Source of the DNA: a bacterium
GTDB taxonomy: Bacteria > UBA10199 > 2-02-FULL-50-16 > JAJFLM01
Assembly: GCA_965216315.1 (NCBI GenBank)
Contig: CBDCFN010000016.1
Span: forward strand, 672,001-736,000
Reading direction: 5' to 3'
Length of the DNA: 64,000 nucleotides
In this document: piece after piece, positions 19,101 to 54,349 of the stretch
How positions within the stretch are numbered: position 1 is the first letter of the stretch
Layout: each line of letters opens with the position of its first letter
Translations under genes and position numbers: made by a program
The notes under the pieces: model-generated
Seen by the model: the letters and a program-made list of their open reading frames with translations, nothing else
Databases searched by the model: none
What the model was told of the DNA's origin: nothing

Positions 19101-19848
19101 CAACTGTCCCGCCGATCCGGCCAAAACCGAACCGGGTGTCTGCGGTTGTGGCGTCGCGGATACGGACAGCGATTCCGACGGAACACCGGATTGCAACGAC
19201 AACTGTCCCGCGGATCCGGCGAAGACCGAACCCGGCGTCTGTGGCTGCGGTGTCAGTGATGTCGACACCGATGGGGATGGCTCCGCTGATTGCAATGATT
19301 GCGATGATTCCAATCCGGATGTCTATCCCGGTAATACTGAGAGTTGCGATGGCATCGATAATGATTGTGACGGCGATAGCGACGAAGACTTTACCGATCT
19401 CGGTGATGCGTGCTCAGCGGGCGTTGGTGAATGTCTGAATGTGGGAATAATCGTCTGTACAGCGGATGGCAATGGCACTGAGTGTAATGCGGTCGCCGGA
19501 ACACCGCCAGAACCCATCGAGGTCAGTTGTGCTGACGGCCTCGACAATGACTGTGATGCGGCCGTGGATAGTTTAGATAGCGATTGCGATCCAGGTGGAG
19601 TTTCTGTCTCCGATTGTCTGGCCGCAATTGATGACGCCACGTGGAAGAATTTCGGTTCTGAAAATGCAGCCATTCATGTTTGTGAAAATATGATTAACCA
19701 TTATAATGACGGTAACTGTGGTGGTACTTTAGGAAACCTGACCGCGTTATATAATATCGGCAGAAAACAAATTCAGTCCGGTCAACAGCAGTATACGGAT
19801 ACGTTGGATAGTATCGGAGTGCATGTCAATAGCACCATATGTCAATGA
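1165..19848 (+). CDS. giant 6227-aa Cys/Asp-rich secreted/surface protein: thrombospondin type-3-like Ca-binding repeats, MopE-like CDGxDNDC repeats, 3 LamG-like domains, 4 discoidin/F5-8C-like domains, 33-aa tandem array
   Basis: Single uninterrupted ORF with SD GGGGAG at 1155-1160. DxDxDGxGDxCDNCP repeats. LamG-like segments at ~2250-2960, ~3120-3750 and ~11755-12325 ([11 protein letters not shown]/YxGxxDE). Discoidin-like segments (AFDG..W, YRYYRxE) at ~4310-4790, ~5220-5700, ~6210-6650 and ~6970-7505. EICDGxDNxCD motifs. Confidence 0.92.
8150..9130 (+). repeat. three tandem 309-bp (103-aa) coding repeats
   Basis: The [27 protein letters not shown] unit recurs at 8221, 8530 and 8839. Boundaries are approximate. 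Confidence 0.8.
10870..11364 (+). repeat. five diverged copies of the 99-bp (33-aa) [11 protein letters not shown] repeat
   Basis: Cys-Pro codons recur every 99 nt from 10870 to 11365. Confidence 0.85.
12373..19302 (+). repeat. 70 tandem 99-bp coding repeats ([33 protein letters not shown])
   Basis: First unit TGT at 12373, second at 12472, last at 19204: (19204-12373)/99=69 intervals. No spacers. Confidence 0.95.
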
Positions 19849-20171: not shown

Positions 20172-23100
20172 TTATGGAATGCGTCGGACTTCCCCAACGC
20201 GGTAATCGATTGCCCGACCGCTGGTCCAGGCCTCGCGATTGCCCGTGCGTTGATATTCCAATGTCGAAGAGACCAGTGCTTCCATGAAATTAACGACACC
20301 CGCGCGGCCCGTATCTGCGACCGTTCCGGTGTTGTCACTGCCGGACGGGCCTGAGTTAAGGATACCGGCGCGGAAGACCCAGTGACCACCGCCCTCGGCG
20401 GGGATGATCAGCCACCAGCCGGTGTTATCGAGGAAGTCGTCGAGGCCCGGAGAAGCCTCGAGACGCCAGGCCGAGAGACGGCCGACCGTGTTGACGGTTT
20501 CGGCGCTGGGTATGCTGCTGATGAGATAATCAAGAGCCAGTCCGCCAGGCAGAGAAATTGTTGAACTTGTGTAGGCACGTGCCGGATCAACGGTGCCGCT
20601 ACTCAGTGTTGGTGAAGGCACATTATCGGCACGGCTGAAGTTGCCCGCGTCGAGTCGATCATAGTCTTCAGCATGATGGATCGTGTCGATGAAGCGGTCG
20701 ATATCAACTGTGGTGTCGCTTCCATTCCACTCGAGCGTTTCCGGGACGTAATAAATGTTGAGCGAATCGACCGTATCACCCTGGCGGCGACTATCCTGAG
20801 AGATATTCGGATGAAAACGGTCGTCTTCGAAGACCAACACATCACCGAAATGATTGCTGCCGCGCATTTCAGTTGAACGGTTCTTGATGTGTTCGATAGT
20901 CAATAAATAGCGTTCCGTTGCTGATCCAAAGTCGGAGGCGATATCGCTCATCACGCTCGGCGGATTCAGCATGGTGGTGGCGAGGGCCATAAAGGCATCG
21001 GCACTGAGTTGAGTGTCCAGTCCGGAACTGGTGCGGAGTTCCTCGATGGGAATTTCCCGCGCCCGCATCCAGCGATTGAAGTCAGCTTCCGGGACCCCTA
21101 ATCGATCCACTAAGTACGGTCGGACATCACCTTCTTGAGCGGTTTCACCGATCGTCAAGATGGGCAGTTCCGTGGTTTCGCTGACGCCCATGGTCAAGAA
21201 GTCGACACGGCGGACGGTACTTGTTTCGGTTGAGCTTGTTGAATCATAAGGTAGCTCCGTGCGAATGTCGCGTGCTGTTGCACCCGGCGTGCGAATCAGA
21301 GCAAGGATATTTCCGGCCGTGACGGCGTAACGATTGGTCGAGTGGCGGGTGACACTGCTTTGCGGTGGTTCAAGGGCGCGTAGTGATCCGTTTAAGAAGC
21401 CTTCCCAGGTAATGCTTGGTTCCGTGCTGATGCGAGTCCGCGGAAAAGGGAGCTCATGGTCGGGTCCGTTAAAATCGGAATGTTCGTCAAAGACGACGAG
21501 GGTTCCATTGTCGACCGCTGCCCCCGTATCCGGGTCAATCGCGCCGGTGACCGGGATGAGACGGACGGTTCGGGTGTAAGCCTCCATGTCGTTGTCTTCG
21601 CTCGGTGTCATGTGAAAATGAATAATGCGGATATTGCCTTCGGTGCGTGTCGAGGTCGTGATTGTATAATCATAGTCGTTTAAGAGCTCACCTGTTGATG
21701 AAGAACCCGTTACGTTGACGTCATCCGTCCAGTGATCCCATGTGCCCATATTGGCAACATTGGTGAGAACCGCTTCGACCTCGGCTGGTGTTGCCGGCAG
21801 AATGGAGAGAAGCTGCATATCGCTACCGTCACCTTCCGACACGCTGTGATAATCATCGTTGCGGAAGATATGGCCATGGACGGGAAGTTGATTCCCTGAG
21901 TGGGTCAAGAGGTTGCCAAGGCTGCGCCGTACATTCGCGAGTGCGATTAATCCGCGGAGATCAAACTGGCGATGGGTTCCTCGCTCGGCCGTGGGGACGT
22001 TAAAGTAAGAATAGAGGAAGCTTTGTAAGTCGTCTTCTGAGTAGTGACTGCTGATCGCGGCGTCGCTGCGGACGGTACTGATAACTTCCGGGACTTCAAT
22101 GCGCAGATCACGCAGGATGGCATCGACATCGCTCCGGGGAATGCCTAAGGCCTCTTGCAGGATGCCAGGGACTTCCGAATGAATGGCCGGCGTTCCGCCT
22201 TCTTCGGCGGTTTGCGTAAAATATAAGGTAGGCGTTCCGGTTTGCTGATCCGACCAGACAACGGCCGGGCAGTCACTGGCGGTACAAACCGGAGGCGCGG
22301 GGAGGGCGCGTCGCACATCCAGTACCCCCTCCAAGGCCGTGCTCAGATTACCGAGCAGGTTGGCATCGGCAGTTAGGGTCACGTCTAGGGGCCCCGTCAT
22401 ATTGACGAAGATGTCGCCGCTTCCTGGCGGAATCGAGCGGCCCGTTGCGCGCTGGACGTTGGCGTGGGCTTCAGAGAGCCGCATCATATGAGTTTGTCCC
22501 TCGAGATCGCTTTGATATGTCGTCCACCGAGCACGATCCCAAGTAAAGAACTCCTCAAAGGTCGCCGGCGGAGTCGGCAGCGTCGGGGTCGGCGGTGTCG
22601 CCGTAAACCGGACTTCGTTGGTTGTTGGGTTAAAATGGACCTGGAGTCCGGGAATATGGGCCAGGGTGTCCAGGTTGGTCAGGTCGAGTTGCAGGGGCTG
22701 GCGGACATGACCGTCTACTTCAGAGTTAACGTTTAAGTCGCTGACATTGATAGTGATTTCTCCGTCGGGTGAAATCGAGCCGGTCACGCCGGCCGAGCTT
22801 TCGCTGCTGCCCGTAATGACGATCGTGTCGTCGGCCTCACCGACCGAGAAGGTCAGGCGGACCTGGCGTGGATCTCCATCGGGTCCCGGCAGCGTTTCAA
22901 ATTGGATCCCATCCGTTGGGTTGGCCGAAACACTCACCTGCTGGCCTTGGGGGTCCTGGTGAAAGTTAATATTGAGATCCGAGAACTCGCCTTCGTCGCC
23001 TTCAAAACCGGCAATCTCGAGGCTGGGGATGAAAATTTCCGGCGTGTCATCGCCGCTGCCAACGCTCGGAAGATTCCAGGTGCTGCTGATACTCGGATTG

Positions 23101-26100
23101 CTCGGGTCTCTCATGTCGACATCGATTTCACCGCGAAAGCCGCGGATTGGAATATTAAGGCGTGCGCCGGTTCCGACCGTAATCCCTTTGACTTCGAAGC
23201 CTTCGGTAATGCTACCACTCAAAACCGTTTCGGGGACATCGAGCTCAAAGTGGGCGCGGCCATCACGCATGTTGCCGCTGACGTTATAGGCCGTTGTCAT
23301 GTTGACGGTTCCGGAACCGATGACGTCGCCGTCGGCGTTGCGCGCGGTAACGGTCAAGTCGCCCGTTAAGGTGTAAGGATCGCTCGGAGTGCGCAGTCGC
23401 ATATTGGGACGCGCCAGATCAGAAATATCTAAAGAAGCCCGCACTTCTCCGGTCGGAGTGAGGTGACCCGTGATTTCATAGGTGATGCCGTCCTGGGTAT
23501 GGCTAAAGTTGACATCAAAGCCTTCGGGAGGCCGGACGCGTATGCTCATCTCGGCATTGTGGCCATCGATACGAACGCGACCGCGTGAGCTGCCACTGCC
23601 CGCATCAATGTCGATCGTTCCACCGGCGACATCAATCGTCTGATCACTTAATGGAATGCGGACGTGATACTCCGCCTCCGGGCTATCCGTCTGTATTCCC
23701 GTGATCTCGGCACTGGCGCGGGCAGTCAGCAAGGTCGTGCCGTCACTGACGACACGCATGACACTTTGCATGGGGAATGAAATCGAATCGACTTCCGTAA
23801 AATTATAGTAAGAGCGTCCCGCGCAGACACACATCTCATCAGCACTGGCATCCTCCATGACGTGAATGCTGTCAGGATCGATCTGAATTTCCGAGACATC
23901 AACGCGGGTTTGTGAAACACCACTGACACCTAAACGGTCACTTAGGTTGGTAACGCCGATGAAATCACCGGCGGCACTGAGTAGCGCGCCCATGTGGTTA
24001 TTGACGTGGGCTTGAATACGTAGCTGGCCGGCTTCGTTGTCGGAGATTTCCAGGGTTCCACCGCTCATCAAGGTGTTGGTGCTGCCGCCACTGATTTGGC
24101 GGACCGTTCCGCCTCGTAGTTCAAGGCGAATACCTCCGACTTGGGGCATCCAGTTGACGGGCGGGGCGTCTTCCGGGGCATCCGGAGCCGCTGACGTATT
24201 AATAAGTTCGACCGTTCCGACAAGCTGGCCGGTGAGCTCAAACGTACCTTGTGGGGTCGTGACGCGCAGGCCGTTGACCTGCGTGTTCACGCGGGCGGTT
24301 GCACAAAGGCCGAACTCAAGTCCGTCGCGGTCGCTGGTAATATTGATTCCTGGCGGTAGGACGTCGCCGTTAAACTCAGCCGTTGCGGCATCCCCAAACG
24401 TGCCTTCAGGGGCGTTGATCGCAATATCATCCCATTGACCAATGATCGCACCGCTGATGCTATTGATGCTGAGCTCGCGCCAACTATAACCCTCGTCGTT
24501 GGAGAAGTCGTGAATGCTGAGGTTGCTACGAAAATCTATATTCTGGTCATTGCCATCGACGTTGCCTTCGACGTGCGCGGTAAGCGGGATTTCTGCATCC
24601 ATACGATCTTCCTGGATCGTAAAGGTTCCGTCCGTAATTGAGATTGAGGCATCAGAACTGATCGCAAGGGTGCGCTCATCCGAGGGGCTGACGGTGCCGG
24701 CCAGATCATCGACGTTGATTGTGCCGTTAATCGTGCCGGAGAGTTGGTCAACGCCAAGCGGCGAATCGGGATTGATAGAAATGTTAGGATCCAACACAAT
24801 GCGTACGTCTTCGAGGCCGAGATAACCGCGATCGATCGCAACCGGGACGGGCGTCGGGTAGGCCCCGGTCGGCAGGGCAAAGCGACCGCCCATCTCGATC
24901 GTGATTGCCGTATCGTCGGCGACGACATCGAGATGACCGCGTTGTTCACCGCCGAAAGTCATGCCATCGACGGTGACGGGATCCATGTCGAGGTTCATGC
25001 TCGCGTGCAGCTCACCGCTGACTTCGACGGCACGCGGGTTGTCGGGGTCGTTGCCCGTATAATTGATTGAAAAATGTTCGGCACTCAGGGCGAGGTGATT
25101 GGCGCCATGCTCTTCAGCGCCGCGGCGAATACGCAAGGCAGGGAAATCCAGTCCTGAAATGACCGGGACGACAATGTCGCCATTGACGGTCATTTGCCCG
25201 TTGAGCGACACATGCGCCATTAAGTCTTCGGGGGTGCGCGTTGGAAACAGTCCCTTGAGTTGGGTCTCAATGCTCATGTCACCGGAAGCGGGCAGCGTAA
25301 TCTCTTGATCACCGACTTGGACGGAGGCAATGCTGAAACTCGTATCGAGATGGGCCTTGAGTTCACGTTGATGCCGCAGGTTAGCGAGTGTCGTCGCATC
25401 ACGTTCGCCGTTTTCCCAGGCTTCGAGTTCGGGGTTGTGGTAACTTACGTCGAAACCGAGCGCGTTATTGCCTTCGCCAAAATTAACCGTCATGGCGGGA
25501 TTGCCCATGATGGAAGGAATCTCAAGCTGATCGCCGGTCGCCTCTAAATCGCCGTTTAGTTTGACGTTGCGCACGATTGACAACGGATCATTTTGTAACC
25601 AAGTCGGGACGTTGCTGAGGTCAAAATTGGGATCCGGTCGACAACCGCGCGGGGCGGCAGCATGGAATATATCCGTTCCGAAGGCCTCGTGCGCTTGAGT
25701 GAGAAACTCGTCACCGATGCCGACCATTCTTTCGTTACTTAAATTGTAGGTCGTGGCATAAAATTGTTTGAACTCATCAAAGTTCATTAGACTGATTTCC
25801 GTCTGACGGCGCAGTAATTCACTGCGGGCGTAATCGACGTCGGTCACCGACGATTGAAAGATCTGACTGTAAAGTTCCAGTATTCCTGCTTCACTGACGC
25901 GTTGGTTTGCCGTGGCCATTTCTGCGGACAACGCCAGCAGAGACGAGACTGACCAGGAAGAGGGGAGACCATTATCGCGCAATGCAGTGGCGACAGGAAA
26001 AGTTTCAGTGACGCTGCTGCGGTTATCCGAATTGCAGACGAGTTCGCCGCCGGCATTGAGACCGTAGGGAAAAACATAGGGATTGTCGCCGACAATGCGG

Positions 26101-26591
26101 AGTTGATCATCAAAGGGCATCAGACCGAGGGCCGTTCCGTAGATGCGCGGGACACCATTGGCATCAAGGGCGAGTCGTTCCGCATTAAAGAGTGAACCAT
26201 CGGCACTCCACAGATTGCCGCTCACCGTGCCGCCGCCGACGTCGTAAAAACTAACGCCCGTGAGTCGGAGGAGATCGCCGCTCAGATCAAGCATGCCGTC
26301 GCGAATGACATAATCACCGGTCGCACTGATAGCGCCTCCGCGGGGAGCAAACTGACCACCGAGTCTTTCTAAGGACGTAAAACGATCGACAAAGAGGGGA
26401 TTGACGCCGTCGGCACCGCGATGGGGGAGGCGCGCATCGATTTCCAGGTGCAGGTTGCCGTTAACAGGCGCACCGAGGCTGTCGTCACGTCCGTCGCCGT
26501 TACCATCGCCAAGATTATTGGCGGGGTGCTGGGCGTAAAGGGTCCAATCGGGTGATCCGGTCCCTACCGAATTTCCGTCTCCATCTCCCAC
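20172..26591 (-). CDS. 2139-aa acidic hypothetical protein: long beta-rich region plus two C-terminal START/SRPBCC-like modules
   Basis: Long ORF with GTG start. Collinear homology to the 31914-35150 and 28707-31901 products. ILPATPAEVEAVLTNVANMGTW and DNTGWWLIIPAEGGGHWVFRAG segments resemble helix-grip folds. No signal peptide. Confidence 0.85.
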   Translation of the reverse strand: MGDGDGNSVGTGSPDWTLYAQHPANNLGDGNGDGRDDSLGAPVNGNLHLEIDARLPHRGADGVNPLFVDRFTSLERLGGQFAPRGGAISATGDYVIRDGMLDLSGDLLRLTGVSFYDVGGGTVSGNLWSADGSLFNAERLALDANGVPRIYGTALGLMPFDDQLRIVGDNPYVFPYGLNAGGELVCNSDNRSSVTETFPVATALRDNGLPSSWSVSSLLALSAEMATANQRVSEAGILELYSQIFQSSVTDVDYARSELLRRQTEISLMNFDEFKQFYATTYNLSNERMVGIGDEFLTQAHEAFGTDIFHAAAPRGCRPDPNFDLSNVPTWLQNDPLSIVRNVKLNGDLEATGDQLEIPSIMGNPAMTVNFGEGNNALGFDVSYHNPELEAWENGERDATTLANLRHQRELKAHLDTSFSIASVQVGDQEITLPASGDMSIETQLKGLFPTRTPEDLMAHVSLNGQMTVNGDIVVPVISGLDFPALRIRRGAEEHGANHLALSAEHFSINYTGNDPDNPRAVEVSGELHASMNLDMDPVTVDGMTFGGEQRGHLDVVADDTAITIEMGGRFALPTGAYPTPVPVAIDRGYLGLEDVRIVLDPNISINPDSPLGVDQLSGTINGTINVDDLAGTVSPSDERTLAISSDASISITDGTFTIQEDRMDAEIPLTAHVEGNVDGNDQNIDFRSNLSIHDFSNDEGYSWRELSINSISGAIIGQWDDIAINAPEGTFGDAATAEFNGDVLPPGINITSDRDGLEFGLCATARVNTQVNGLRVTTPQGTFELTGQLVGTVELINTSAAPDAPEDAPPVNWMPQVGGIRLELRGGTVRQISGGSTNTLMSGGTLEISDNEAGQLRIQAHVNNHMGALLSAAGDFIGVTNLSDRLGVSGVSQTRVDVSEIQIDPDSIHVMEDASADEMCVCAGRSYYNFTEVDSISFPMQSVMRVVSDGTTLLTARASAEITGIQTDSPEAEYHVRIPLSDQTIDVAGGTIDIDAGSGSSRGRVRIDGHNAEMSIRVRPPEGFDVNFSHTQDGITYEITGHLTPTGEVRASLDISDLARPNMRLRTPSDPYTLTGDLTVTARNADGDVIGSGTVNMTTAYNVSGNMRDGRAHFELDVPETVLSGSITEGFEVKGITVGTGARLNIPIRGFRGEIDVDMRDPSNPSISSTWNLPSVGSGDDTPEIFIPSLEIAGFEGDEGEFSDLNINFHQDPQGQQVSVSANPTDGIQFETLPGPDGDPRQVRLTFSVGEADDTIVITGSSESSAGVTGSISPDGEITINVSDLNVNSEVDGHVRQPLQLDLTNLDTLAHIPGLQVHFNPTTNEVRFTATPPTPTLPTPPATFEEFFTWDRARWTTYQSDLEGQTHMMRLSEAHANVQRATGRSIPPGSGDIFVNMTGPLDVTLTADANLLGNLSTALEGVLDVRRALPAPPVCTASDCPAVVWSDQQTGTPTLYFTQTAEEGGTPAIHSEVPGILQEALGIPRSDVDAILRDLRIEVPEVISTVRSDAAISSHYSEDDLQSFLYSYFNVPTAERGTHRQFDLRGLIALANVRRSLGNLLTHSGNQLPVHGHIFRNDDYHSVSEGDGSDMQLLSILPATPAEVEAVLTNVANMGTWDHWTDDVNVTGSSSTGELLNDYDYTITTSTRTEGNIRIIHFHMTPSEDNDMEAYTRTVRLIPVTGAIDPDTGAAVDNGTLVVFDEHSDFNGPDHELPFPRTRISTEPSITWEGFLNGSLRALEPPQSSVTRHSTNRYAVTAGNILALIRTPGATARDIRTELPYDSTSSTETSTVRRVDFLTMGVSETTELPILTIGETAQEGDVRPYLVDRLGVPEADFNRWMRAREIPIEELRTSSGLDTQLSADAFMALATTMLNPPSVMSDIASDFGSATERYLLTIEHIKNRSTEMRGSNHFGDVLVFEDDRFHPNISQDSRRQGDTVDSLNIYYVPETLEWNGSDTTVDIDRFIDTIHHAEDYDRLDAGNFSRADNVPSPTLSSGTVDPARAYTSSTISLPGGLALDYLISSIPSAETVNTVGRLSAWRLEASPGLDDFLDNTGWWLIIPAEGGGHWVFRAGILNSGPSGSDNTGTVADTGRAGVVNFMEALVSSTLEYQRTGNREAWTSGRAIDYRVGEVRRIP

Positions 26592-26598
26592 GAGGCTG

Positions 26599-26625
26599 GT
26601 ATCGCGGCCCCCTTAAAAAGGTTGC
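26599..26625 (-). promoter_or_regulatory. putative sigma28-like promoter
   Basis: Minus strand GCAACCTT-N11-CGCGATAC, ending 7 nt before GTG 26591. Confidence 0.55.
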
Positions 26626-26843
26626 TAGGAAAACCGTCTGAAGGTCTTGAAATCACTAGGGTTTTCGAATTTTTCTAATGACGCACTGTGCTATGATCTG
26701 TGGATAAGTGAGATAAGATTGCAACACCATTGGGGAATTCGCGTGACGCGCTTTTTTGAGCAGGTGAATCCGGGAGTGGACAGAATTTAGGTGCCGCTTC
26801 CACCCTCCGTAGCTGTGCTACTGCGGAGGACGGGTGCTGCGCC

Positions 26844-27410
26844 CTAAAACAAAGGAAAGAAGTCGAGCCCAACGGCGAGCTGCAAACCAATCACAAGCCC
26901 GCCCTCGGCGTGATTGCCCATGTGTTCCGCATTTCCTTCACCGCCGATGTACAAACCACCCTGAATGTACGGATTGACGCGATTGACGGGGTAATTCATT
27001 GGTTGGGTCCAGGGCCGCCATTGCACTCCGAGGAGAATGCGGCCGCCATGGCGCTGTAGTCCGTTGTCGTATTGTTCGAAGGTATAGCCGAGGCCTGCAA
27101 AGGGCGTGAGCTGGCCGTCATAGGACCAGAGTTCGGCCGTGAAATAGGGCATGTGGCGCATGCCTGCGAGGGTCTTTTCGAAGGTATAGCCCAGGTTAAA
27201 ACCGAGTCCCTCGAAGGAGCCGTCTTGCGGGCTCTCACTGCGGGCGCGTCTGAGTGTCAGCGCGAAGTCAAAACCACCGCCGACGCTTCCATCCAGTACC
27301 TTGGAATCATTGTCGAAATAGCCGAGGTCAAAATTGGCGCTGCCGAGCGCACCGAGGCGAAAGCCGAAATAATTGGTCCTGAGCTGGCAGCCTAGATCTC
27401 CGTCACACAT
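26844..27410 (-). CDS. outer-membrane beta-barrel-like hypothetical protein without signal peptide
   Basis: SD GAGGA upstream of the ATG. Alternating amphipathic strands (GLGFNLGYTF, LTPFAGLGYTF, VNPYIQGGLY) and a C-terminal aromatic end (VGLDFFPLF). Confidence 0.7.
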   Translation of the reverse strand: MCDGDLGCQLRTNYFGFRLGALGSANFDLGYFDNDSKVLDGSVGGGFDFALTLRRARSESPQDGSFEGLGFNLGYTFEKTLAGMRHMPYFTAELWSYDGQLTPFAGLGYTFEQYDNGLQRHGGRILLGVQWRPWTQPMNYPVNRVNPYIQGGLYIGGEGNAEHMGNHAEGGLVIGLQLAVGLDFFPLF

Positions 27411-27433
27411 GGCAATCTACATCCTCTGCTAGT

Positions 27434-27461
27434 GGTTCGGCGGGCCCGAATAAAAAGTTGC
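27434..27461 (-). promoter_or_regulatory. putative sigma28-like promoter
   Basis: Minus strand GCAACTTT-N12-GCCGAACC upstream of ATG 27410. Confidence 0.55.
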
Positions 27462-27496
27462 TAGGGTAATTTTCCGAAATTATTGGAAAATACTGT

Positions 27497-27519
27497 GTAG
27501 GGGCGCTGCTCGCCGTGCC
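27497..27519 (+). repeat. GTAG-type REP-like element
   Basis: GTAGGGGCGCTGCTCGCCGTGCC, related to the copies at 35281 and 37767. Confidence 0.55.
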
Positions 27520-27528
27520 AAATCAATT

Positions 27529-27987
27529 TTACGCGATCTCCCGGAGAATCCGTAAGGATTCGGAAATATGCTTTTTGGCCTGAAGCTGCGAATTAAAGAT
27601 GTGCCGCACCACGCCTTGTTTATCAATGATGTAGGTGACGCGCCCCGGCAAAAGGCCGAAGGTTGACGGGACCCCAAAGCTCTTGCGCACCTTGCCGCCG
27701 GGATCACTCAACAACACGAAGGGGAGGCGATGCTGCGCCGCAAACTCGGTATGGCTTTCCTCGGAATCGGAGCTGATACCGATGACCTCGGCGCCGAGTT
27801 CTTTGAAGTCCTCGTATTGATCGCGAAACGAACAGGCTTCAGCGGTACAGCCAGGCGTATTATCCTTTGGGTAAAAGTAGATCACGACCGCCTGTTGGTT
27901 GCGGTATTGTTGCAACGATACATCTTCACCGTCCGCATTCTTTAATGTGAAGTCCGGAGCGCTGTCGCCGACTTGGAGTTGGGGCAT
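27529..27987 (-). CDS. bcp: peroxiredoxin Bcp/PrxQ
   Basis: GDSAPDFTL, YFYPKDNTPGCTAEACSFRD, GISSD and GRVTYIIDKQG motifs. Start reassigned to ATG 27987 because the longer ORF overlaps the upstream gene. Confidence 0.93.
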   Translation of the reverse strand: MPQLQVGDSAPDFTLKNADGEDVSLQQYRNQQAVVIYFYPKDNTPGCTAEACSFRDQYEDFKELGAEVIGISSDSEESHTEFAAQHRLPFVLLSDPGGKVRKSFGVPSTFGLLPGRVTYIIDKQGVVRHIFNSQLQAKKHISESLRILREIA

Positions 27988-28022
27988 AGCTAATGCGAAA
28001 CAGAATAGAGTGACTTTGTCAA

Positions 28023-28697
28023 TTACAGCCTCAAACGCAATCCCGCCGTGATGCCGTTGGTGACAAGGGGATCGAGGAACTGGTGATTGTATTCGATGAA
28101 GCCGATTAGTAGTGGGTTGTCGCCGGTGATGCGGAACTGGGCGCCGATATCCATATTCAGCCACGGATGGACATTTTGGTCTTCGTAGGTCATCGCCGCG
28201 CCGCCCATGAGGTTGATGTACAGTGAGGCGACATCCGGGTAGGGGAGATGCACGGCAAAACCTCCGCTGACTGCCGTGAACTCATCCGTCGCCAAGATCT
28301 CGAGGCGTGGCATGAAAAAGACTCCGACGGGAGCATTTAAAGCAAAGTCGGGGAGTTGAAAAAGGATGGGCGGAATCAGGTCCGCAAACTGAACATCGAT
28401 GCGGCCGCCGCCATGGATCGCGCCGGTCTGCTCACGCCAGTACAGCATGCCGGCAAAACCCCAGCGGAGTCCCGGCATCAAAGGTCGCGCATGGAGGTCC
28501 GCTGGGGCTGGACGTGTCGTCCATGGCAATTCGGGAAATTCTTCGGGTGTCGAGACTGGAATTTCGCCGGTCTGGCACTGTTCATCCGCCGCCGCAGCAG
28601 GTGCAGCAGCTGGCGGCGTTGTTGCTTGGGGCGTGGGACCACCACTCGATGGTGGTGTTGCCTGCGCGAGCCGTAATGTCAGTTCATTTCCTCCCAT
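28023..28697 (-). CDS. beta-barrel-like hypothetical protein with Pro/Ala-rich N-terminus, no signal peptide
   Basis: SD AAGGAG, 9 nt after the upstream stop. About 8 amphipathic strands ending NGITAGLRLRL. Confidence 0.72.
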   Translation of the reverse strand: MGGNELTLRLAQATPPSSGGPTPQATTPPAAAPAAAADEQCQTGEIPVSTPEEFPELPWTTRPAPADLHARPLMPGLRWGFAGMLYWREQTGAIHGGGRIDVQFADLIPPILFQLPDFALNAPVGVFFMPRLEILATDEFTAVSGGFAVHLPYPDVASLYINLMGGAAMTYEDQNVHPWLNMDIGAQFRITGDNPLLIGFIEYNHQFLDPLVTNGITAGLRLRL

Positions 28698-28706
28698 AGT
28701 TTCTCC

Positions 28707-31700
28707 TTAATCGGCCTCCGGCGTGCGAAAGAGTTGACGGTATTGAAAGCTTACTCCCGTGCGTGGAGTTCCCGAGGACGATTGACGTTGAGTGCGATGA
28801 TAAATGCCGGTCAAAAAGCTCGCGACATCACGAAAGGCCTGTTCGGCAAGGTCAACATCACCGGCTTGAATGGTGTTCAATAAACCTACGCGTAAGACGA
28901 GCGTGCCGCGATTGCCTTCAAGTGGGAGCACCGCCCAATAGCCTTCGTTTTCTTCCATCCCTTGCTCGGAAATATTGGGGCGACGGGCCCAGGTCCACGG
29001 AGCGTAACCGATGTTGCCGACGTGTTGAATGGTGCTCGGGGTTTCGATACGATAGTCGACGACGCGAACGGTGATATCGAGGCTGACATCATAGCAGCTA
29101 CGTCCGCTTTCCGGGTGCTCACAGGCGACTTGAGCCGCACGTGTAAAACGGCTCGAGTAACGATTGAATTCATGTGGTCGACTAAAGACGCGCAAGAGAT
29201 CTTGTGCGGAGATGTCATTGGGGAAGACACTGTAGGCGACACTATCTGTACTATCTGCAGGTGTGCTGTTATGGCCACTCCAACGATGAAAGCGACCCGG
29301 TGCAAAGTTCCTAAAATCAAGGGCTAGCTGTTGGGCTCCGGCTTGAGGGATCCAGGATTGAATATTGGCCCGGATGTCACCGAGATGGTGCAAGAAGCGA
29401 TCCCCGCGACCGATGAAGGGGGCCGGCATGTCTTGTAGGATCAAACGTGCAAAAGAGGTGACGGTTTCCGCACTAAACTGTTGTCGCACCCAAGGAAGAC
29501 TGGCGATGTCGGCAATGGGAATGCGTCCTTGTTGAATGCGTTGATCGGCCCATGATCGCTCGACACCCAGCGTGGAGACCATAAGCTGGGCGACTCGGTC
29601 ACGCTCGCGCTCTGAAACAGTCAGTCGAATTTCTGTAGTCGTAACTTCGCGTCCATCGACTTGCTGCGTGGCACTGTGAAATTCCATAAACTCAGGGGGG
29701 CGACTGGCATCATCCATTCCGGTGAAGGCGTAGCGGAGAGTGCTTACACTTTGAGCATGGCCATTAGGATTGACTTGAGCGGCGGTCCGACCGCGACTTA
29801 ACATTTGATAAAGATTCGAGATGCCGCGGTTTATGCGAAATGCATGGACCCGGGTCGGGTCGCGATTTGGATTCATTAAGGGGATGATCCGTTCACCAAG
29901 TTCGGAGAGCATTTCTCCACGCAGGGCAAACTGGCTGGAATCGACGACTCGCGAAAAATTCTCGACCCGTCCCTGAACGATGTTGGCATCAGTGCCGGTG
30001 AAATCGATCGCTTGCTGTTGCACGAGAAAGGTGCCAACGACGCCGCGTTCGGGGTGGCGTGGATCGCGTACGGGTATCAGCAAGTTTCTTCCTGCAAACA
30101 CTTGAAAGCCGGCATTGCCGCTGTCGTCGCCGGTGACGGGCGCATAAGAAAACGTTTGGACCGCATCTGTCGAGCGTGTGGCTCCGTAGCGACGGCTCTG
30201 AGCGCGCACGTGATAGTTGAAGCGTCCATCAATGGTACCGCGGAAGCTTCCGTCGGCTTGACGACTTGAGGCCGTGACCCATGGGACCCAGTAACGATGA
30301 TCGGCCATGTTTTGTAGCAACGGCAGTATTCTTTGTGGCGGATAGGGGATAAAGGCTGTTGCGGTTTGATTCGCTCCATCCGTTCCTGCCGGCATGGCAC
30401 CTCGATAAGAGGCATCTTCGTCGTCCACGGGAAAGCGCTGCATGATCGTGCTGCGCACCTGAGAATGCCACCAAATTTCTCGGTTGAAGCCAACGAGCTC
30501 TCGGAGATTATGACGGATGTTGCCGAGTGCCAAAAAGAAGCGGTTGCCGCGATTCGTAAAGTAACGACTGGCTGGGTCGCGCGTATCGAAAAAAGCGCGG
30601 ACCAGTGAGCGGACGGTCTGAGGTGGCATGTAGGGAGTACGACGAATGATGTCGCTGATCTGAATGCGGCCGTTTTCAAAGAGGCGTCTCGCTTGGTTGC
30701 GCTCCAGTCCGAAGGCGCGACCGATGGCGGTGATCAATTCATCGTCTCGTCGGTTGAGAATAAATAAGGTATCTTGGGTGGCATTGTAGACAACCGATTC
30801 GCGGGGAGAAGTCGACGGAAGCGGGGGATTCGGATGGAGGCGCCGGATATCAAGGGCCTGCCAGACCTGCTGACGCAGGTTTTGAATTGCGGCCTGCAGC
30901 GGAGTGGCCGTGACCTCCTGTCCGGCGGCACGTTCTCTTGCCTGGGTCTGTTCGATGGTGCGCAAATTAACCGAAAAACGGTGAGTTCTCTCGCCATTCG
31001 CGCGCGGCGGCAGGTTGATATAAATCGATCCACGTCCTGGTGGGAAATATTCGAGTGAACCGGGCAGTCGTGCATTGGCTTCAGTGAGTACTGCGAGGTG
31101 GCGGCGATTCGGATCTTGGAGCTGCTCACGATAACGCGCGTAGGCTTGTCGGTTCCACCGGGTCAAGAAGGCCTGCGTTGAATTCGGCGGTGGCGTCAGT
31201 GGCGGGCTCGCATGTGGCGTGACGGTGAGTTCGATAACACGCGTTTGGGGATTGATACTCAAGGTCATACTTTCAATGCCGGCGCTCGTATCAATATCGG
31301 ATAAGCAATAGAGGCCGCCACCCATGCGAACTTGTCCGGAAGGTATGCGTGAAAGCAGTGAAAAATCGCGCAGACTCACCTGCAGAACGCCTTGAGGCGT
31401 GATGTTAATATCGATGTCGCTGGCACGCGTGGTCGAGCGCAGCATGACAATTAAATCACGGCCAATGTTGGCGTCTAATTCGAGCACGTTAGGCTGGGCA
31501 GCGCCTTCGGTTCTGAAACGAACTCTCCCATCTCTTTGAATCGTCACGCGGTAGCGTTGGCCGTTCGTGCGGTTGTTGACGGTAAAACTTCCGGCCCCGT
31601 GGAGGACGATATCGGGATGGCTGCCCATGGGGTCGCCTGGTAGGGTGCCGGTTACCGGACCGAGTGGGGCGATGGTCCCGCGGATTGTGACGACCGCATC

Positions 31701-31901
31701 ACGTATGTCGACGAGTTGTTGATAGGTATAGGTCTGTGAACCAACGACAGCGACATACTGGTCGCGATCTTGGCGCGGAAAGAAGCGTAAGGCCTGGCGG
31801 GCTTCGGACTGCGTATCAATTTCTCCAGTGCCATGACGGATGACGCGACGGTTGCCACCTGTTTCTTGCCCGCTTCGTCTAATGAGTAGTTCGATCGACA
31901 T
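28707..31901 (-). CDS. 1064-aa Arg-rich hypothetical protein, paralog of the C-terminal half of 20172-26591, two START/SRPBCC-like modules
   Basis: SD AGGAG. Shared blocks FPPGRGSIYINL/IPPGSGDIFVNM, LDIRRLHPNPP/LDVRRALPAPP and ENEGYWAVLPLEG/DNTGWWLIIPAEG. Confidence 0.85.
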   Translation of the reverse strand: MSIELLIRRSGQETGGNRRVIRHGTGEIDTQSEARQALRFFPRQDRDQYVAVVGSQTYTYQQLVDIRDAVVTIRGTIAPLGPVTGTLPGDPMGSHPDIVLHGAGSFTVNNRTNGQRYRVTIQRDGRVRFRTEGAAQPNVLELDANIGRDLIVMLRSTTRASDIDINITPQGVLQVSLRDFSLLSRIPSGQVRMGGGLYCLSDIDTSAGIESMTLSINPQTRVIELTVTPHASPPLTPPPNSTQAFLTRWNRQAYARYREQLQDPNRRHLAVLTEANARLPGSLEYFPPGRGSIYINLPPRANGERTHRFSVNLRTIEQTQARERAAGQEVTATPLQAAIQNLRQQVWQALDIRRLHPNPPLPSTSPRESVVYNATQDTLFILNRRDDELITAIGRAFGLERNQARRLFENGRIQISDIIRRTPYMPPQTVRSLVRAFFDTRDPASRYFTNRGNRFFLALGNIRHNLRELVGFNREIWWHSQVRSTIMQRFPVDDEDASYRGAMPAGTDGANQTATAFIPYPPQRILPLLQNMADHRYWVPWVTASSRQADGSFRGTIDGRFNYHVRAQSRRYGATRSTDAVQTFSYAPVTGDDSGNAGFQVFAGRNLLIPVRDPRHPERGVVGTFLVQQQAIDFTGTDANIVQGRVENFSRVVDSSQFALRGEMLSELGERIIPLMNPNRDPTRVHAFRINRGISNLYQMLSRGRTAAQVNPNGHAQSVSTLRYAFTGMDDASRPPEFMEFHSATQQVDGREVTTTEIRLTVSERERDRVAQLMVSTLGVERSWADQRIQQGRIPIADIASLPWVRQQFSAETVTSFARLILQDMPAPFIGRGDRFLHHLGDIRANIQSWIPQAGAQQLALDFRNFAPGRFHRWSGHNSTPADSTDSVAYSVFPNDISAQDLLRVFSRPHEFNRYSSRFTRAAQVACEHPESGRSCYDVSLDITVRVVDYRIETPSTIQHVGNIGYAPWTWARRPNISEQGMEENEGYWAVLPLEGNRGTLVLRVGLLNTIQAGDVDLAEQAFRDVASFLTGIYHRTQRQSSSGTPRTGVSFQYRQLFRTPEAD

Positions 31902-31913
31902 AATTAAGTGCTC

Positions 31914-34900
31914 CTAGCGCCCTCTTAGTAAGGCCCTCACGTTAATATCGACGGTTAATTCGGATTCTCCCTGCTGGCTCCGGACCCGTGTTTCTGGTGC
32001 GACGCGGACACCACCCGTTTCAAAGCCATGGAGGACTTCTTCCGTCACAATATTCTCAGGGATACGGATGCGCAGCCGGCCATGACGCAGATTGCCGGAG
32101 CCGGAAACGATGGATGTTGTATCGACCGCAGTCCGATTCTGCGATTGAATCTCTCCTGCAGCGTTTCGCTCCGTGATGGTTAGATTGCCTTGTAATCTGT
32201 GACGCCGGCGTGGAATACGGAGACGTTGACGTTCCATGTCAACGCGCGTTGAGATCGAACCATCCATTAAGAGTTCACCTTCTTGCTGAATTGTCGAGCC
32301 GTCTTCGCGGGTTTGGGTTAGATTGATACGAAATCCGCGAATGCGCAGGCGACTGCTTGAACCCGATTCGCTTCCACGGACCGAAAAACGACCGGGAAGG
32401 ACCGTAATGGTGCCACGTGTCTGACCATCGCGAGAGCGATAGGGGATTGAGCGTTGCCGTATCGGCAATGACGCTTCGTAGGAGGCGTGGGGAGATTCGG
32501 ATTGAATTTGTTGGAGGTTGGCGTGACCCCGCAAGTCAATCCGTCCCAGGTTTCGTATGATGGCACGGACTAAAAAAGAGGGGATGCTGACGTCTTGAAT
32601 GCCGCCGATATTGTAATAGCGATCTCCATCTTCGGGCTCACAGCTAGCTGAATCAGCTGTACATGTCACGGCAGAACCATCCCGATAACTGTCGGGATCA
32701 AGCGTACTGGCGATAGCTTCAGAGTTCATAGGGATGACAATTCCTTCCGCGAACAAGCGGGCGCGGGACGGGATCATATCACGAGAATTTTCTCGAGCGG
32801 TACGAACACTGCGGCCGAGGTCCGGAGCTAGGCCACGTAAAAAGTTTTCTATGCCGTTCAGGATGCCGTCGAAGACGGAACGACCGGGCAATTGCCCGAC
32901 AAGATTGTTAAGGTGTCCATTGAGTTCGGCACGAACGACAAACTGGGGCTGACCGGCTTCGTTGACTTCGTCGCGGATGTGCAGGGTGATACCGCTCGCT
33001 AAGGTTTCACCGTTACGCCGAATACGGGCATTATCGATGCGAATGCGGATGCCCCCGACTCGCGGGGCTAGTTCAGGAACGGATGTCTCACTCGTTCTAT
33101 TAAGGAGGGAGAGATCGCCACTGACCTGGCCGCTGATGTTTAGAGTACCGGCCAGGGCCGGGGCGTCAGGAATAGCACTGCGCGGAATCGTTATGCGGAG
33201 GTCGTGCACTTCGGCTGTAAAATGGGCTTGGCTCGTGTAGCCAAGCGGGTGAGTCAAAGGATTGTTGCGTAAGGACGAATTAAGAGTGACTTGAATGTTT
33301 TGTAGCGCCGAGGCGTCACCTCGTAGTTGGACAGCGCCAATATCCGCGTTCAGGGGGCCCAGGAGCGAGAGATCACTTAGCTGTATCATGCGCGTGACAC
33401 GACGTTCTCCGGTCTCACTGTCTTGATAAGGTGTGTCTTGCAGTCTGAGCCCGACAGCGGCATCGCTTTGCAGGGTATTTCCATTCAAGTGACCGGATAA
33501 ATTTAATTGATTGAGGATGTTGAGTGTAACGAGGTCATTCTCAATGCTGAAATCTCCTGAAGTGTGGATTTGTCCGGAGATATTTTGAAAGAGATGTTCT
33601 CCCGAACTTCCCGAAATGTCAGTAAGGTTTACCATCCCATCAATGTTGCCGGAAACGTGATCGACGTGATGCACAGAGGTCGGGTCAATGCGAATATCGG
33701 GAGCGACAAGTAGATGGAAATAGGGAAGCGTGACATGTCCGTCGCTGAAGTGAACAGGAAACGCTTGTGACGGCAGCGCCATGCGGCCGGAAAGATCAAT
33801 GAGGACGCCTTGCTCGTCGGCAGTAAGCTGGGCCTGTGCGGATAGCGGCCGATCTAAAATGCGATCCCCCATTTGCGCACTTTGGATGTCTAAAGATGCC
33901 TGGGCGTTGCCGAGCAGGCGCACATGTCCGCCGCTTAAATAGCTGATTGATAAATTGCTGATGAGTTGGTTCGGGTTGTTACTGCGTTCAACGGTGATGT
34001 CCGGAACGCCCTCAATATTAATGACTTCGATGTTGCCCTCTTGGGTGATGACACCGTGTAGAAATATTTGAGCCAAGACGTCATCGAGTAAGCGCGGTGA
34101 CGGGGGTCCATCGACTTGCGCGGTCGTATTAATGACGCCTTGGATGGGAAGATGAATGCTACGCTCACCCGCGATAGGATCGTGAATGCGGATCTGTTGA
34201 AAATCAAAGGTTGTTAATAGGTTTGCAACTAATTGGGCATGTTCGGCGGGTTGATCGCGACGACGGAGTTGATCACGGAGGCGCGGGTTGTCAAATGCCA
34301 CACTCCAGCTGGCGAGATTGGGACCGTCGCCAAAGTCTATTGTCATGGGTGAGAAACGATAAGGATGCTCGGGGTCCGGTTGAATCTCCATTGTTTGCCC
34401 GGCGATGTTTACGACTCCGTTGGTCCGTGCGCGGAGTAGATAAGGAAGGGCGCTGAGCGGATTCTGCGGGTCGCGAGCGATAAGCGTTGGAGGATTGATA
34501 TGCAGATCGGGATCTTGCGGGCAGCCGCCCGCCGCGGCCATTTCACTGACGTCGAGGCCGAGGCCGATCATAGTCGGGAAATCAAGTGGCGATGGGATGC
34601 CGTCGCGAAGGCGACGTGTTGTCGGAAGATCGTGATCGACTTCCCAATCGCGCTCGTCATCGCAAATCAACTCATCGCGATAATTAAAGCCTAGCGGGAG
34701 TTGTGATAAGAGATTCAGGTCTTGATTGAGTCCGAACGGCCACCACAGTCGATGCGGTTCATCGCTGAACCGACTGCGATGTTCGACCTGTCCGCTGATC
34801 GTCGGTGAGCCGTCGTTGAGAAAAATTTGTTCGGGTCGAAAGAGGATGTTTACCCCAATCCAGCTCGGCATCCAATCGGGATAGATATCCTCGCGCAGGG

Positions 34901-35150
34901 CGCGCAATCGCGCGCCACGGATATTGGCGAGGGGACCGGAGAGATCCAGGGCCCCACATCGGATGCCGCGCGTTGGGGCCTCGATGCGGACAAGGCCTCC
35001 ATTGAGGCCCATTGGGAGCAAATGAGTGTCGACGATGACCGGACGGGCTGGATCGGCGCCGCGTGACGGGACGAAAATGGTCGCGGACCCGCTAAAGACC
35101 CCGTTCAAAGGAGTTGAATTGGTACAGATATTGTTAAGTTCAGGCGGCAT
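31914..35150 (-). CDS. 1078-aa beta-rich hypothetical protein, paralog of the N-terminal half of 20172-26591
   Basis: Shared blocks MTIDFGDGPN/MTVNFGEGNN, GRMALPSQAFP/GRFALPTGAYP, PRVGGIRIRI/PQVGGIRLEL and IQSESPHASY/IQTDSPEAEY. Confidence 0.85.
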   Translation of the reverse strand: MPPELNNICTNSTPLNGVFSGSATIFVPSRGADPARPVIVDTHLLPMGLNGGLVRIEAPTRGIRCGALDLSGPLANIRGARLRALREDIYPDWMPSWIGVNILFRPEQIFLNDGSPTISGQVEHRSRFSDEPHRLWWPFGLNQDLNLLSQLPLGFNYRDELICDDERDWEVDHDLPTTRRLRDGIPSPLDFPTMIGLGLDVSEMAAAGGCPQDPDLHINPPTLIARDPQNPLSALPYLLRARTNGVVNIAGQTMEIQPDPEHPYRFSPMTIDFGDGPNLASWSVAFDNPRLRDQLRRRDQPAEHAQLVANLLTTFDFQQIRIHDPIAGERSIHLPIQGVINTTAQVDGPPSPRLLDDVLAQIFLHGVITQEGNIEVINIEGVPDITVERSNNPNQLISNLSISYLSGGHVRLLGNAQASLDIQSAQMGDRILDRPLSAQAQLTADEQGVLIDLSGRMALPSQAFPVHFSDGHVTLPYFHLLVAPDIRIDPTSVHHVDHVSGNIDGMVNLTDISGSSGEHLFQNISGQIHTSGDFSIENDLVTLNILNQLNLSGHLNGNTLQSDAAVGLRLQDTPYQDSETGERRVTRMIQLSDLSLLGPLNADIGAVQLRGDASALQNIQVTLNSSLRNNPLTHPLGYTSQAHFTAEVHDLRITIPRSAIPDAPALAGTLNISGQVSGDLSLLNRTSETSVPELAPRVGGIRIRIDNARIRRNGETLASGITLHIRDEVNEAGQPQFVVRAELNGHLNNLVGQLPGRSVFDGILNGIENFLRGLAPDLGRSVRTARENSRDMIPSRARLFAEGIVIPMNSEAIASTLDPDSYRDGSAVTCTADSASCEPEDGDRYYNIGGIQDVSIPSFLVRAIIRNLGRIDLRGHANLQQIQSESPHASYEASLPIRQRSIPYRSRDGQTRGTITVLPGRFSVRGSESGSSSRLRIRGFRINLTQTREDGSTIQQEGELLMDGSISTRVDMERQRLRIPRRRHRLQGNLTITERNAAGEIQSQNRTAVDTTSIVSGSGNLRHGRLRIRIPENIVTEEVLHGFETGGVRVAPETRVRSQQGESELTVDINVRALLRGR

Positions 35151-52500: not shown

Positions 52501-53253
52501 GCGGCGCATCGGATTCTTGGCCAATAAGGCCTTGAGGAGGCTCTCCAGCGTCTCCTTGTAAGGATGTCGAGAAAGGAAGGGGAACGAAGGCTCCTCATTC
52601 AAATGAAATGCAATCATGGCCTCAGATTGGAGTGGGAAAGGTAATTGCCCCTTATTTAGAAGCTGGTAGAGTATCATGCCGAGGGCATAGAGATCCGACT
52701 TGGCAGTGGGTTTCCCTTGTTTGATGAGTTCAGGGGCCATATATGCGAGCGTTCCAGCCGCAGCAGATTTCTCCTTGTTTCCCTTTTTTAGGCTCGCAAG
52801 TCCGAAGTCTATCAATTTAACGCGGCGGGTTTTCTTCTCGAGAAGGATATTGTCGGGCTTGATGTCTCCGTGAATGACTCCTTGAGTATGAATATAGGAA
52901 AGACCGCGGCAGAGTTGGGCGATGATTTCCCACCACGCTTTGCCTTTGACGAGCTTGATTCCCTTATCTAAAGAAGCACCTTCAATATACTCTGTTACCA
53001 TGAATGGTTGTGGCTGATCCTGATCCGTCAGGCCACAGTCAATAACCTCAACGACGTGAGGATGATAAAGGGATTGAAGGAGTTTGAATTCTTTATTGAA
53101 TGTTGCTGACTGAGACTTCGATGTCAGTAGTTTGACGATACAGTATGCATTTCCCAGCAACACATCCTCAGTAAGCCAAACAGTACCAAAACCACCTTCT
53201 CCGAGCTGCTTCTTTAGCCGATAGCGTCCATTAATGAGTGCGGGTGAGGTCAT
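49600..53253 (-). CDS. Ser/Thr protein kinase-TPR-GAF-degenerate sigma54-interaction AAA+-Fis HTH regulator
   Basis: Kinase motifs GEGGFG, HGDIKPDN, DFG and APE. TPR-like helices. GAF (AERGFI, SILAAPI, GALYVD). GELGTGKD, YIDE, IPPLRKRKEDI, WPGNVREL and HTH GWNKARAAKQLGLSR. Start set at ATG 53253. Confidence 0.93.
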   Translation of the reverse strand: MTSPALINGRYRLKKQLGEGGFGTVWLTEDVLLGNAYCIVKLLTSKSQSATFNKEFKLLQSLYHPHVVEVIDCGLTDQDQPQPFMVTEYIEGASLDKGIKLVKGKAWWEIIAQLCRGLSYIHTQGVIHGDIKPDNILLEKKTRRVKLIDFGLASLKKGNKEKSAAAGTLAYMAPELIKQGKPTAKSDLYALGMILYQLLNKGQLPFPLQSEAMIAFHLNEEPSFPFLSRHPYKETLESLLKALLAKNPMRRPNDALEIITLLNKKHKLALAVHRSAVASEEESIFFQTIDDYLEATDPLLQMSSVNNPQSFLDAESQRIEKYLTVARDLPKKDTAELIDRLHETQMRLLIQQGRYNDALKLKSRTPRINNVRALAQIYLEKFAEAERLLKSVHQTAKKPIDKARALNYLGMASYNQGELEAARPYFEKSLKEMKRLKETTGIVSNSMNLAAIAQQQGDIATALQLYREALKAAQNLQNSFLLAILLSNMANLLLQVGSLDEAEEHLSKSSELAQQLGMTFITAYNLLLEADISMWREDSESADKVLEYAMETFEQLKAPQYLALAQVSYAENALRHHHHAAFEKRLTQAETFVNKSSLPDTRFRLAILKVRQKLIQAQPPKQLPQELNKLKQSADGTKQEFRVLACMALWALGHRKQEDLKTHIEKMHEIFETERETLPIAYRSQIAQSPRYAILWELQDKQRRLQEAPADASLWSLIEINKRIAAQRDTKKLYDVILDAAIELTNAERGFIITPGESKRDAWQIQAAREFRKRDLPGGRDLLSQTIIKRLLKSKQPLLIQNALEENSLAKFRSVQALKLRSILAAPIISHGNILGALYVDHSQTANLFEKKNLELISAFADQAGIALNNATLYEEALQRQKELDQAHNKLAELNKRLQLDLDETSNWAERLEEELKEAQHVGKVVTRSVAMQHILKRFSTLAKIRRPVILSGELGTGKDHMAKVLHAQTESHPLIMLIASNLPRWKTDSLEANALTEAFTRARGGTLYIDELSEIPIPYQRELRNFLSSQKNEKNYNVFCIISSRLGLKETLKKGLLTPELNRLLTGSEIRIPPLRKRKEDITPLANHFLNHLSATRGIKRKISRRALALFQEYDWPGNVRELELEIERAALSAQTTIGPNGTLPDTTLLQEVGFVPGTFKKSAPELQNQRAEFERDLILQALEKTGWNKARAAKQLGLSRAMLYIKLKKYQIPLK

Positions 53254-53260
53254 TCTCGCT

Positions 53261-54317: not shown

Positions 54318-54349
54318 AAGAGTACACCTCTAAGCACCCACCTCCCGAT

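Follow-up and report, generated by a model that had tools for sequence, protein, structure and literature searches.

Giant beta-rich proteins ending in two predicted START-type domains, encoded as one chain or as two in a UBA10199 bacterium

Can the same giant bacterial protein exist both as one chain and as two, and what might a protein of this build do? The question is raised by a 64,000-nucleotide (nt) stretch of DNA from a bacterium of the lineage UBA10199 (assembly GCA_965216315.1, contig CBDCFN010000016.1, positions 672,001 to 736,000; hereafter the window). Its table of open reading frames (ORFs) holds a fused ORF of 2139 amino acids (aa; 20172-26591, minus strand) and two split ORFs of 1078 aa (31914-35150, minus) and 1064 aa (28707-31901, minus). 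An earlier reading made from the letters alone (the sequence-only reading) had taken these for fused and split copies of one protein, with twin lipid-binding START/SRPBCC-like modules behind a long beta groove. We followed up this proposal by homology searches, a phylogeny and structure prediction.

Three paralogous giants and a conserved split

The genes of this family in the window, and their parts, are as follows.

20172..26591 (-): fused copy A, 2139 aa, GTG start; its N-terminus, MGDG..., is common to relatives
23007..26591 (-): residues 1-1195 of fused copy A, its beta-rich N-half of amphipathic beta strands
21177..21863 (-): fused copy, START-like domain 1, as located from its alignment with residues 495-745 of the 1064-aa C-half (P0003)
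20175..20846 (-): fused copy, START-like domain 2, as located from its alignment with P0003 residues 861-1064
31914..35150 (-): N-half gene of the split copy (P0002), 1078 aa, ending with TAG 31914-31916
28707..31901 (-): C-half gene of the split copy (P0003), 1064 aa, in the frame of the N-half gene
31698..31901 (-): N-terminal "cap" domain of the split C-half, residues 1-68
31218..31691 (-): all-beta stretch of long strands, split C-half model residues 71-228, continuing the beta region of the N-half
29787..30389 (-): split C-half, predicted START-like domain 1 (residues 505-705 of the model)
28764..29435 (-): split C-half, predicted START-like domain 2 (residues 823-1046 of the model)
31911..31915 (-): AGGAG Shine-Dalgarno-like site, overlapping the TAG and 9 nt 5' of the ATG at 31899-31901

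Using BLASTP, we aligned the fused protein collinearly with the N-half ORF (E 8e-55, 26% identity over 947 columns) and with the C-half ORF (E 2e-34, 22% identity over 1006 columns). The collinearity claimed by the sequence-only reading was therefore recovered, and all four motif pairs that it had quoted lie inside these alignments. The same 2.96-Mb genome carries a third copy of the family (G000:C16:1960441-1966836; L034:5442-11837, plus strand), fused, 2132 aa long, about 1.27 Mb from the window and 48-49% identical to the first fused copy, as well as a 453-aa ORF that matches the last module only. Judging by these alignments, the three giants are paralogues.

Outside this genome, the family consists of rare, unnamed, giant proteins. 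A profile search of 1.84 billion cluster representatives (E <=0.001) returned only 38 proteins. They comprise fused forms, which run to about 1,700-2,250 aa, another four stand-alone C-halves of 1027-1115 aa, and four small proteins with a single module. Within the phylum, 11 of the 93 genomes examined have a member, and these fall into 4 of 24 families. Other searches added little: a word-index search with the C-half found only itself, one with an N-half profile found P0002 and a single 1917-aa protein, a related-loci search with P0001 found no relative, and scans against NCBIfam, PADLOC and PHROGs gave nothing useful.

The junction of the split copy reads ...LLRGR-TAG-EHLI-ATG, such that the two ORFs share one frame and are separated by one TAG and four codons. 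The stop, Shine-Dalgarno site and start codon that had been described as clean are all there. The TAG is unchanged in contigs of four sequencing runs, which come from two samples of one study that is possibly the source of the assembly. No tRNA with a CUA anticodon is encoded in the genome, and 361 of its 1322 long ORFs terminate with TAG. The codon is an ordinary stop here, and we rejected read-through for lack of a suppressor tRNA. Promoter and terminator scans yielded fewer sites than they did in shuffled sequences, and no RNA data set was among the sequencing runs listed as containing the sequence.

A sister genome of the same taxonomic family (G001) encodes two tandem stand-alone C-halves on one contig, of 1060 and at least 1055 aa. 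Both are 46-47% identical to the C-half of the window, with the alignment beginning at its residue 2 or 6. All stand-alone C-halves have in common an N-terminal domain of about 68 residues (MSIxxTxR...GxGxIDTxxEA...YVAVVG..TYTYxxL). This cap domain lacks a counterpart at the junction of the fused forms (hhalign 6%), where only residues 69-112 align, to fused residues ~1162-1215. We computed a tree from the C-half body using 25 of the 32 rows of alignment A2, excluding seven rows with fewer than 700 residues there. The seven stand-alone forms fell into two clades, with Shimodaira-Hasegawa-like approximate likelihood ratio (SH-aLRT) support of 96 and 100, each nested among fused forms. Forcing them into a single clade cost 159 log-likelihood units and was rejected by the approximately unbiased test (p-AU 1.4e-6), for a group that was named only after the tree had been seen. 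Because there are two nested stand-alone clades, a common cap domain and intact split ORFs, the architecture has evidently changed at least twice, and the two-gene form has been maintained.

These observations also bear on the possibility that the split copy is a decaying pseudogene, left by a recent nonsense mutation in a fused gene. The two ORFs are parted by no more than a single in-frame TAG, and a relative in genome G075 is indeed broken, into overlapping ORFs of 1033 and 1254 aa, with a 1986-aa counterpart in G076. However, the same start and cap domain recur in G001 and in four metagenomic proteins, the cap domain is missing from the fused forms, the AGGAG and ATG are correctly spaced, and all 1078 and 1064 codons are intact even though the N-half of the split copy shares only 24-28% identity with each of the relatives aligned in A3. 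We consider decay extremely improbable. The sequence-only reading had likewise favored real fission or fusion, a view upheld by the stand-alone C-halves of the sister genome and the metagenomes, their two clades and their additional domain of about 68 aa.

Two further architectures were seen among relatives. The gene of the one-contig genome G075 (L151:9136-15901, minus) consists of two overlapping ORFs in different frames, and that of G076, from the same genus, is a single ORF (L150:9800-15757, minus); the break in G075 is a second, different kind of split. The cap domain also begins three proteins of other architecture in genome G010, which are paralogues of one another (L122:1474-3390, minus; L122:11845-13500, minus; L037:4408-6354, plus). 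In these, the domain is followed by a glycine-rich, barrel-like region and then by Ig-like repeats; the next gene in each case is conserved, has 487-649 aa and gives no Pfam match.

The duplicated C-terminal modules and their predicted fold

Each C-half contains two modules, each made of a helical segment and a globular domain. BLASTP between the modules gave E 1e-7 on the helical part, and hhalign aligned module 1 with module 2 at a probability of 98.4% (E 6e-15) over 217 columns that span the helical segment and the domain that follows it; the two domains by themselves reached 94%. By these comparisons the modules are an internal duplication. It is real, and wider than had been supposed from the letters, as it takes in the following domain as well as the helical segment. 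Within the helical segments (P0003 residues 390-415 and 775-800), the pattern LG(V/I)xxxxAxxW(I/M)xxxRIP resembles helix-turn-helix motifs of the MerR/excisionase type. A sequence search of the PDB with module 2 returned a stretch like the RacA N-terminal helix-turn-helix only, which was not significant (E 1).

We predicted the structure of the 1064-aa C-half with AlphaFold2 from a 32-row alignment. The model has a mean predicted local distance difference test score (pLDDT) of 89.9 and a predicted template modelling score (pTM) of 0.80, with pLDDT of 90-97 over most of both START-like domains. It starts with a small alpha/beta domain (residues 1-67), continues with long beta strands (71-228) and then a mixed region, and runs twice through the order beta-alpha-alpha-beta6-long-alpha, at about 510-703 and 885-1041, with the two first helices short. 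In a Foldseek search with the model, ranks 1-50 were all SRPBCC/START proteins. The best was the di-domain aromatase/cyclase BexL (4xrw, E 7e-5), and StfQ (E 5.5e-4), ZhuI, TcmN and whiE-ORFVI were also among the matches listed.

Based on VIA-align, the closest folds are START domains. Model residues 823-1046 matched STARD4 with Z 14.5 (178 residues aligned on 823-1037, root-mean-square deviation 3.2), STARD3/MLN64 with 14.4, StAR with 13.9, a Xanthomonas START protein (3qsz) with 13.4, CERT with 13.3 and PCTP with 12.7. Residues 425-709 matched CERT with Z 13.0 (on 439-705), PYL2 with 12.4 and Maqu_3174 with 11.9. The confidently predicted model thus supports a START-type helix-grip fold, of the SRPBCC/START superfamily, for both C-terminal domains. 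The sequence-only reading had suggested AlphaFold and Foldseek as the check, and the expected SRPBCC/START matches were obtained for residues 505-705 and 823-1046 (Z 11.9-14.5). It had expected the twin modules of the fused copy at ~21460-21810 and ~20270-20770, and alignment to the modelled C-half puts them at 21177-21863 and 20175-20846.

At the level of sequence, SRPBCC is the sole recurrent family for the C-half, always below threshold. Of 32 members, 7 were matched by Polyketide_cyc2, at best with E 4e-4, and 4 by Polyketide_cyc, with a best E of 1.1e-4. In the proteins of the window itself, these matches scored 13.6-14.5 bits vs a cut-off of 27.4 bits, and a sub-threshold Polyketide_cyc2 match lies at residues 1598-1637 of the fused copy, in START-like domain 1. 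Atlas leads for the C-half were 0.84-0.85. A PDB sequence search gave E values of 0.09-1.6 only, with 1t17_A (E 0.14) as the sole fold-related match. When hhalign compared it with a profile built on 29 bona fide RatA-like proteins of this phylum, domain 2 scored 41-66% (E 2.8e-4 to 5.7e-5), whereas reversed or block-shuffled controls scored 0.1-18%; where domain 2 reached 66%, its reversed control reached 0.1%.

The beta-rich part, the small partners and the place of action

In each giant, about 1,400 residues of amphipathic beta strands precede the two tandem modules. Two small genes lie beside the giants of the window.

26844..27410 (-): partner type A, 188 aa, starting MCxxxxGC and ending GLDFFPLF, no signal peptide
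28023..28697 (-): partner type B, 224 aa, rich in Pro/Ala at the start and in beta structure at the end; no signal peptide

The sequence-only reading had assigned a beta-barrel partner gene to each copy. Its claim that partner genes are present was borne out, in the form of conserved small beta-rich ORFs belonging to two unrelated families, A and B. Type A adjoins family genes in three genomes (G000, G002 and G073), and its family comprises five beta-rich proteins of 183-188 aa (the relatives being P0046-P0049), with no signal peptide in any of the five and no Pfam match. The MCxxxxGC motif stands at residue 1 in 4 of 5, with MCDPDIGC shifted by one place in P0049. The C-terminal GLDFFPLF, which fits the beta-signal of outer membrane proteins, is present in 4 of 5, while P0048 ends GLDFLP. 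These proteins resemble mature lipoprotein or barrel sequences that lack a signal peptide. Type B follows the stand-alone C-half both here and in G001, where the corresponding ORF is 36% identical.

As to where the giants act, there are indirect hints of an extracytoplasmic site. Four single-module relatives (321-446 aa) have a hydrophobic stretch ending in a lipobox-like LAGC, LSGC, FAGC or ATGC. The Cys content of the giants is 0.1-0.56%, vs a genome median of 0.96%, and in 7 of 15-16 rows domain 2 contains two Cys residues close together.

From the paralogous copies, the split that recurs in relatives, the duplicated modules and the START fold seen in the confidently predicted model, we tentatively propose that the giant is a scaffold of the cell envelope that handles lipids or other hydrophobic ligands, and we give this reading somewhat less than an even chance. 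The START pockets would bind a hydrophobic small molecule, most likely a lipid, perhaps sterol-, hopanoid- or carotenoid-like. The long beta part would be an elongated scaffold that places these pockets in or at the envelope, and the small beta-rich partner proteins may work together with it. The protein would be made as one chain of about 1,700-2,250 aa or from two genes, in which case the C-half brings its own N-terminal domain of about 68 aa and the two products presumably associate. Lipid transfer along the beta part, if it takes place at all, would be a further step.

Several observations weigh against this proposal. The fold comes from a prediction rather than a solved structure, all Pfam matches of the C-half (START, Polyketide_cyc and Polyketide_cyc2) are below gathering, and domain 1 compared poorly with the RatA-like profile (0.2% and 7%). 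Since no signal peptide or membrane helix was found in any giant or small partner, export is unexplained and the cytoplasm is a possible location. No N-half of the P0002 type was found beside the stand-alone C-halves of G001, one of which is preceded by a small ORF and the other cut by the end of the contig. The sole lipid-related neighbor is a transporter of the MMPL/sterol-sensing-domain type beside one of the G001 copies.

A more specific proposal, made in the sequence-only reading, is that of a true bridge like AsmA or TamB, in which the N-half would be a periplasm-spanning lipid groove that the START heads feed or empty, with the small barrel-like partners docking to it. Several features are consistent with it. 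The column-averaged amphipathic beta moment of the N-half (mean 0.354) equals that of TamB (0.352) and exceeds that of the C-half (0.246), hhalign against 16 TamB proteins gave 68% and 76%, the top Atlas lead of the N-half is YdbH-like (0.76), START heads are present in the C-half model, and conserved small beta-rich partner genes lie beside the giants. However, reversed TamB reached 64% and 49%; because the reversed sequences score about the same, the match reflects shared composition and periodicity rather than kinship, and we rejected TamB homology. The Atlas score is below the level often reached by shuffled proteins. Scans of the giants with the AsmA, TamB, Chorein-N and YdbH models of Pfam gave no match up to E 1, the N-half had no NCBIfam match and 0 matches in a PDB sequence search, and across the genome the YdbH model found nothing and the TamB model only a canonical TamB encoded elsewhere. 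None of the giants has a 19-residue window with hydrophobicity above 1.7, a membrane helix or a signal peptide. PMC10345924 defines the AsmA-like proteins of bacteria by a membrane helix at the N-terminus together with Chorein-N and an AsmA-like domain, and states that this helix anchors all of them in the inner membrane. The N-termini of the giants are instead polar and conserved (MGDG, MGDP or MGEN type). The AsmA/TamB/repeating-beta-groove identity of the N-half was not sustained, and we regard a true bridge of this kind as rather doubtful. N-myristoylation of the MG... N-termini was considered and dropped: the Asp after the Gly is incompatible with the PROSITE pattern, and MG[DGNE] starts are not clearly enriched in the genome (44 of 2714 ORFs, housekeeping genes included).

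The giants could also form a surface or secreted fibre, with an adhesin-like beta stalk and START heads that recognize or extract lipids of another cell, be it prey or host. They are giant, Cys-poor and beta-rich, a giant adhesin-like gene adjoins, and their patchy spread in the phylum is as for accessory surface genes. Yet there is no secretion signal, no known secretion-system gene was seen adjoining the genes, and Pfam finds no adhesin-type repeats in them, and we consider a fibre unlikely. A cytoplasmic enzyme or scaffold of the aromatase/cyclase type, with twin helix-grip domains as in the di-domain polyketide enzymes, would agree with BexL as the top Foldseek match, with StfQ, ZhuI, TcmN and whiE-ORFVI also listed, and with the absence of signal peptides. 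Against such an enzyme, the top VIA-align matches are lipid-transfer START domains of about 200 residues (Z 13-14.5, 176-190 residues covered), the single-module relatives are lipoprotein-like, the Cys pattern speaks against the cytoplasm, and no ketosynthase or acyl carrier protein domain was found among the ORFs of the window or the scanned neighbors of related loci. This makes it very unlikely. The envelope scaffold would take a bolder form if it were an anchor-less lipid bridge, with a groove of more than 1,400 residues that is unrelated in sequence to AsmA/TamB, two START extraction heads, Sec-independent export, and assembly from one chain or from two via the ~68-aa domain as a docking unit. 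We offer this version as quite speculative.

The neighborhood gives some indication of how the locus arose. The split pair and type B appear to have been inserted beside an older fused-gene locus, as suggested by synteny with G001 and G002 that involves EVE, acetyl-CoA synthetase, AhpC and the type A partner. The third fused copy has neither a type A nor a type B partner adjoining; beside it are encoded a HAD-domain protein of 918 aa and a hydrophobic protein of 226 aa. The transporter in G001 is an 836-aa MMPL/Patched protein with a sterol-sensing domain (L035:324-2831, plus). Its gene converges on that of a stand-alone C-half, and 18 nt separate the two ends.

Elsewhere in the window, a c-di-GMP-I-GGC riboswitch (996-1082, plus; 70.6 bits, gathering 59) lies 83 nt 5' of ORF 1165-19848, which encodes a 6227-aa adhesin-like protein with LamG, bacterial TSP3 and F5/8 type C domains. 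This giant adhesin-like gene is probably under cyclic di-GMP control. On the minus strand, 49600-53313 encodes a 1237-aa protein in which a Ser/Thr protein kinase is fused to TPR and GAF, to a sigma-54 activator AAA+ domain and to a Fis-type helix-turn-helix. A run of six ORFs at 53511-63999 (268, 396, 301, 325, 436 and >1459 aa) has no Pfam match at E 0.01, and neither has the 779-aa ORF 44894-47233.

Relation to known lipid-handling systems

The fold of the C-terminal domains is known, while the architecture, the family and its one- and two-chain forms are undescribed in the literature searchable here. Within the collection searched, we found no work joining "AsmA-like" with "SRPBCC", none on "SRPBCC", "giant protein" and "bacteria" together, and none on "DUF7917". 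What is new is that two tandem domains of predicted START fold end a giant beta-rich protein that lies outside any annotated family. Should the beta part guide or hold lipids, a diderm bacterium would have here a new route for moving hydrophobic molecules. The natural one-chain and two-chain forms show exactly where the protein can be cut for experiments. The combination of parts without a recognisable export signal and single-module relatives that look like lipoproteins raises a separate question about protein export in this lineage.

We know of no AsmA-like protein of which START domains are a part. The giants are similar to AsmA-like proteins (TamB, YhdP and YdbH) and to eukaryotic bridge-like lipid transfer proteins in having a long amphipathic beta run with a TamB-like beta moment, a comparable size, and small partner genes nearby, as PMC11126948 describes YnbE for YdbH. 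They differ in having neither an N-terminal anchor nor a match to Chorein-N, AsmA or TamB profiles, and in hhalign scores that do not rise above the reversed control.

BexL and StfQ are likewise proteins with two helix-grip domains per chain, and BexL is the best structural match by Foldseek. These di-domain aromatase/cyclases have about 300 residues, are encoded in polyketide synthase clusters and are cytoplasmic. The present proteins are 3-7 times longer, have a helical linker of about 90 aa before each domain and show no polyketide synthase context. RatA/Coq10-like SRPBCC proteins (Polyketide_cyc in Pfam) resemble domain 2 in an alignment of 87 columns that covers helix 1 and the N.G.W strand (66%, E 6e-5). 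Those proteins stand alone and have about 145 residues, whereas the domains described here have about 200, with extra N-terminal helices, and are closer to START proper.

START domains are classic shuttle-type lipid carriers of eukaryotes, and the bacterial ones are mostly small and poorly understood. An anchor-less bridge, if it proved true, would combine shuttle and bridge, the two ways in which eukaryotes transfer lipids, in a single bacterial machine. The modelled domains share the beta-alpha-alpha-beta6-alpha topology of STARD4, STARD3/MLN64, StAR, CERT, PCTP and the Xanthomonas protein 3qsz, and their superpositions on these proteins cover 165-190 residues, with Z 12.5-14.5 for domain 2 and 13.0, with CERT, for domain 1. 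Sequence identity is only 5-11%, and the Pfam matches of the family stay below gathering. The setting differs too: here a tandem pair of domains closes a protein of 1,064 to about 2,250 aa whose front part is huge and beta-rich.

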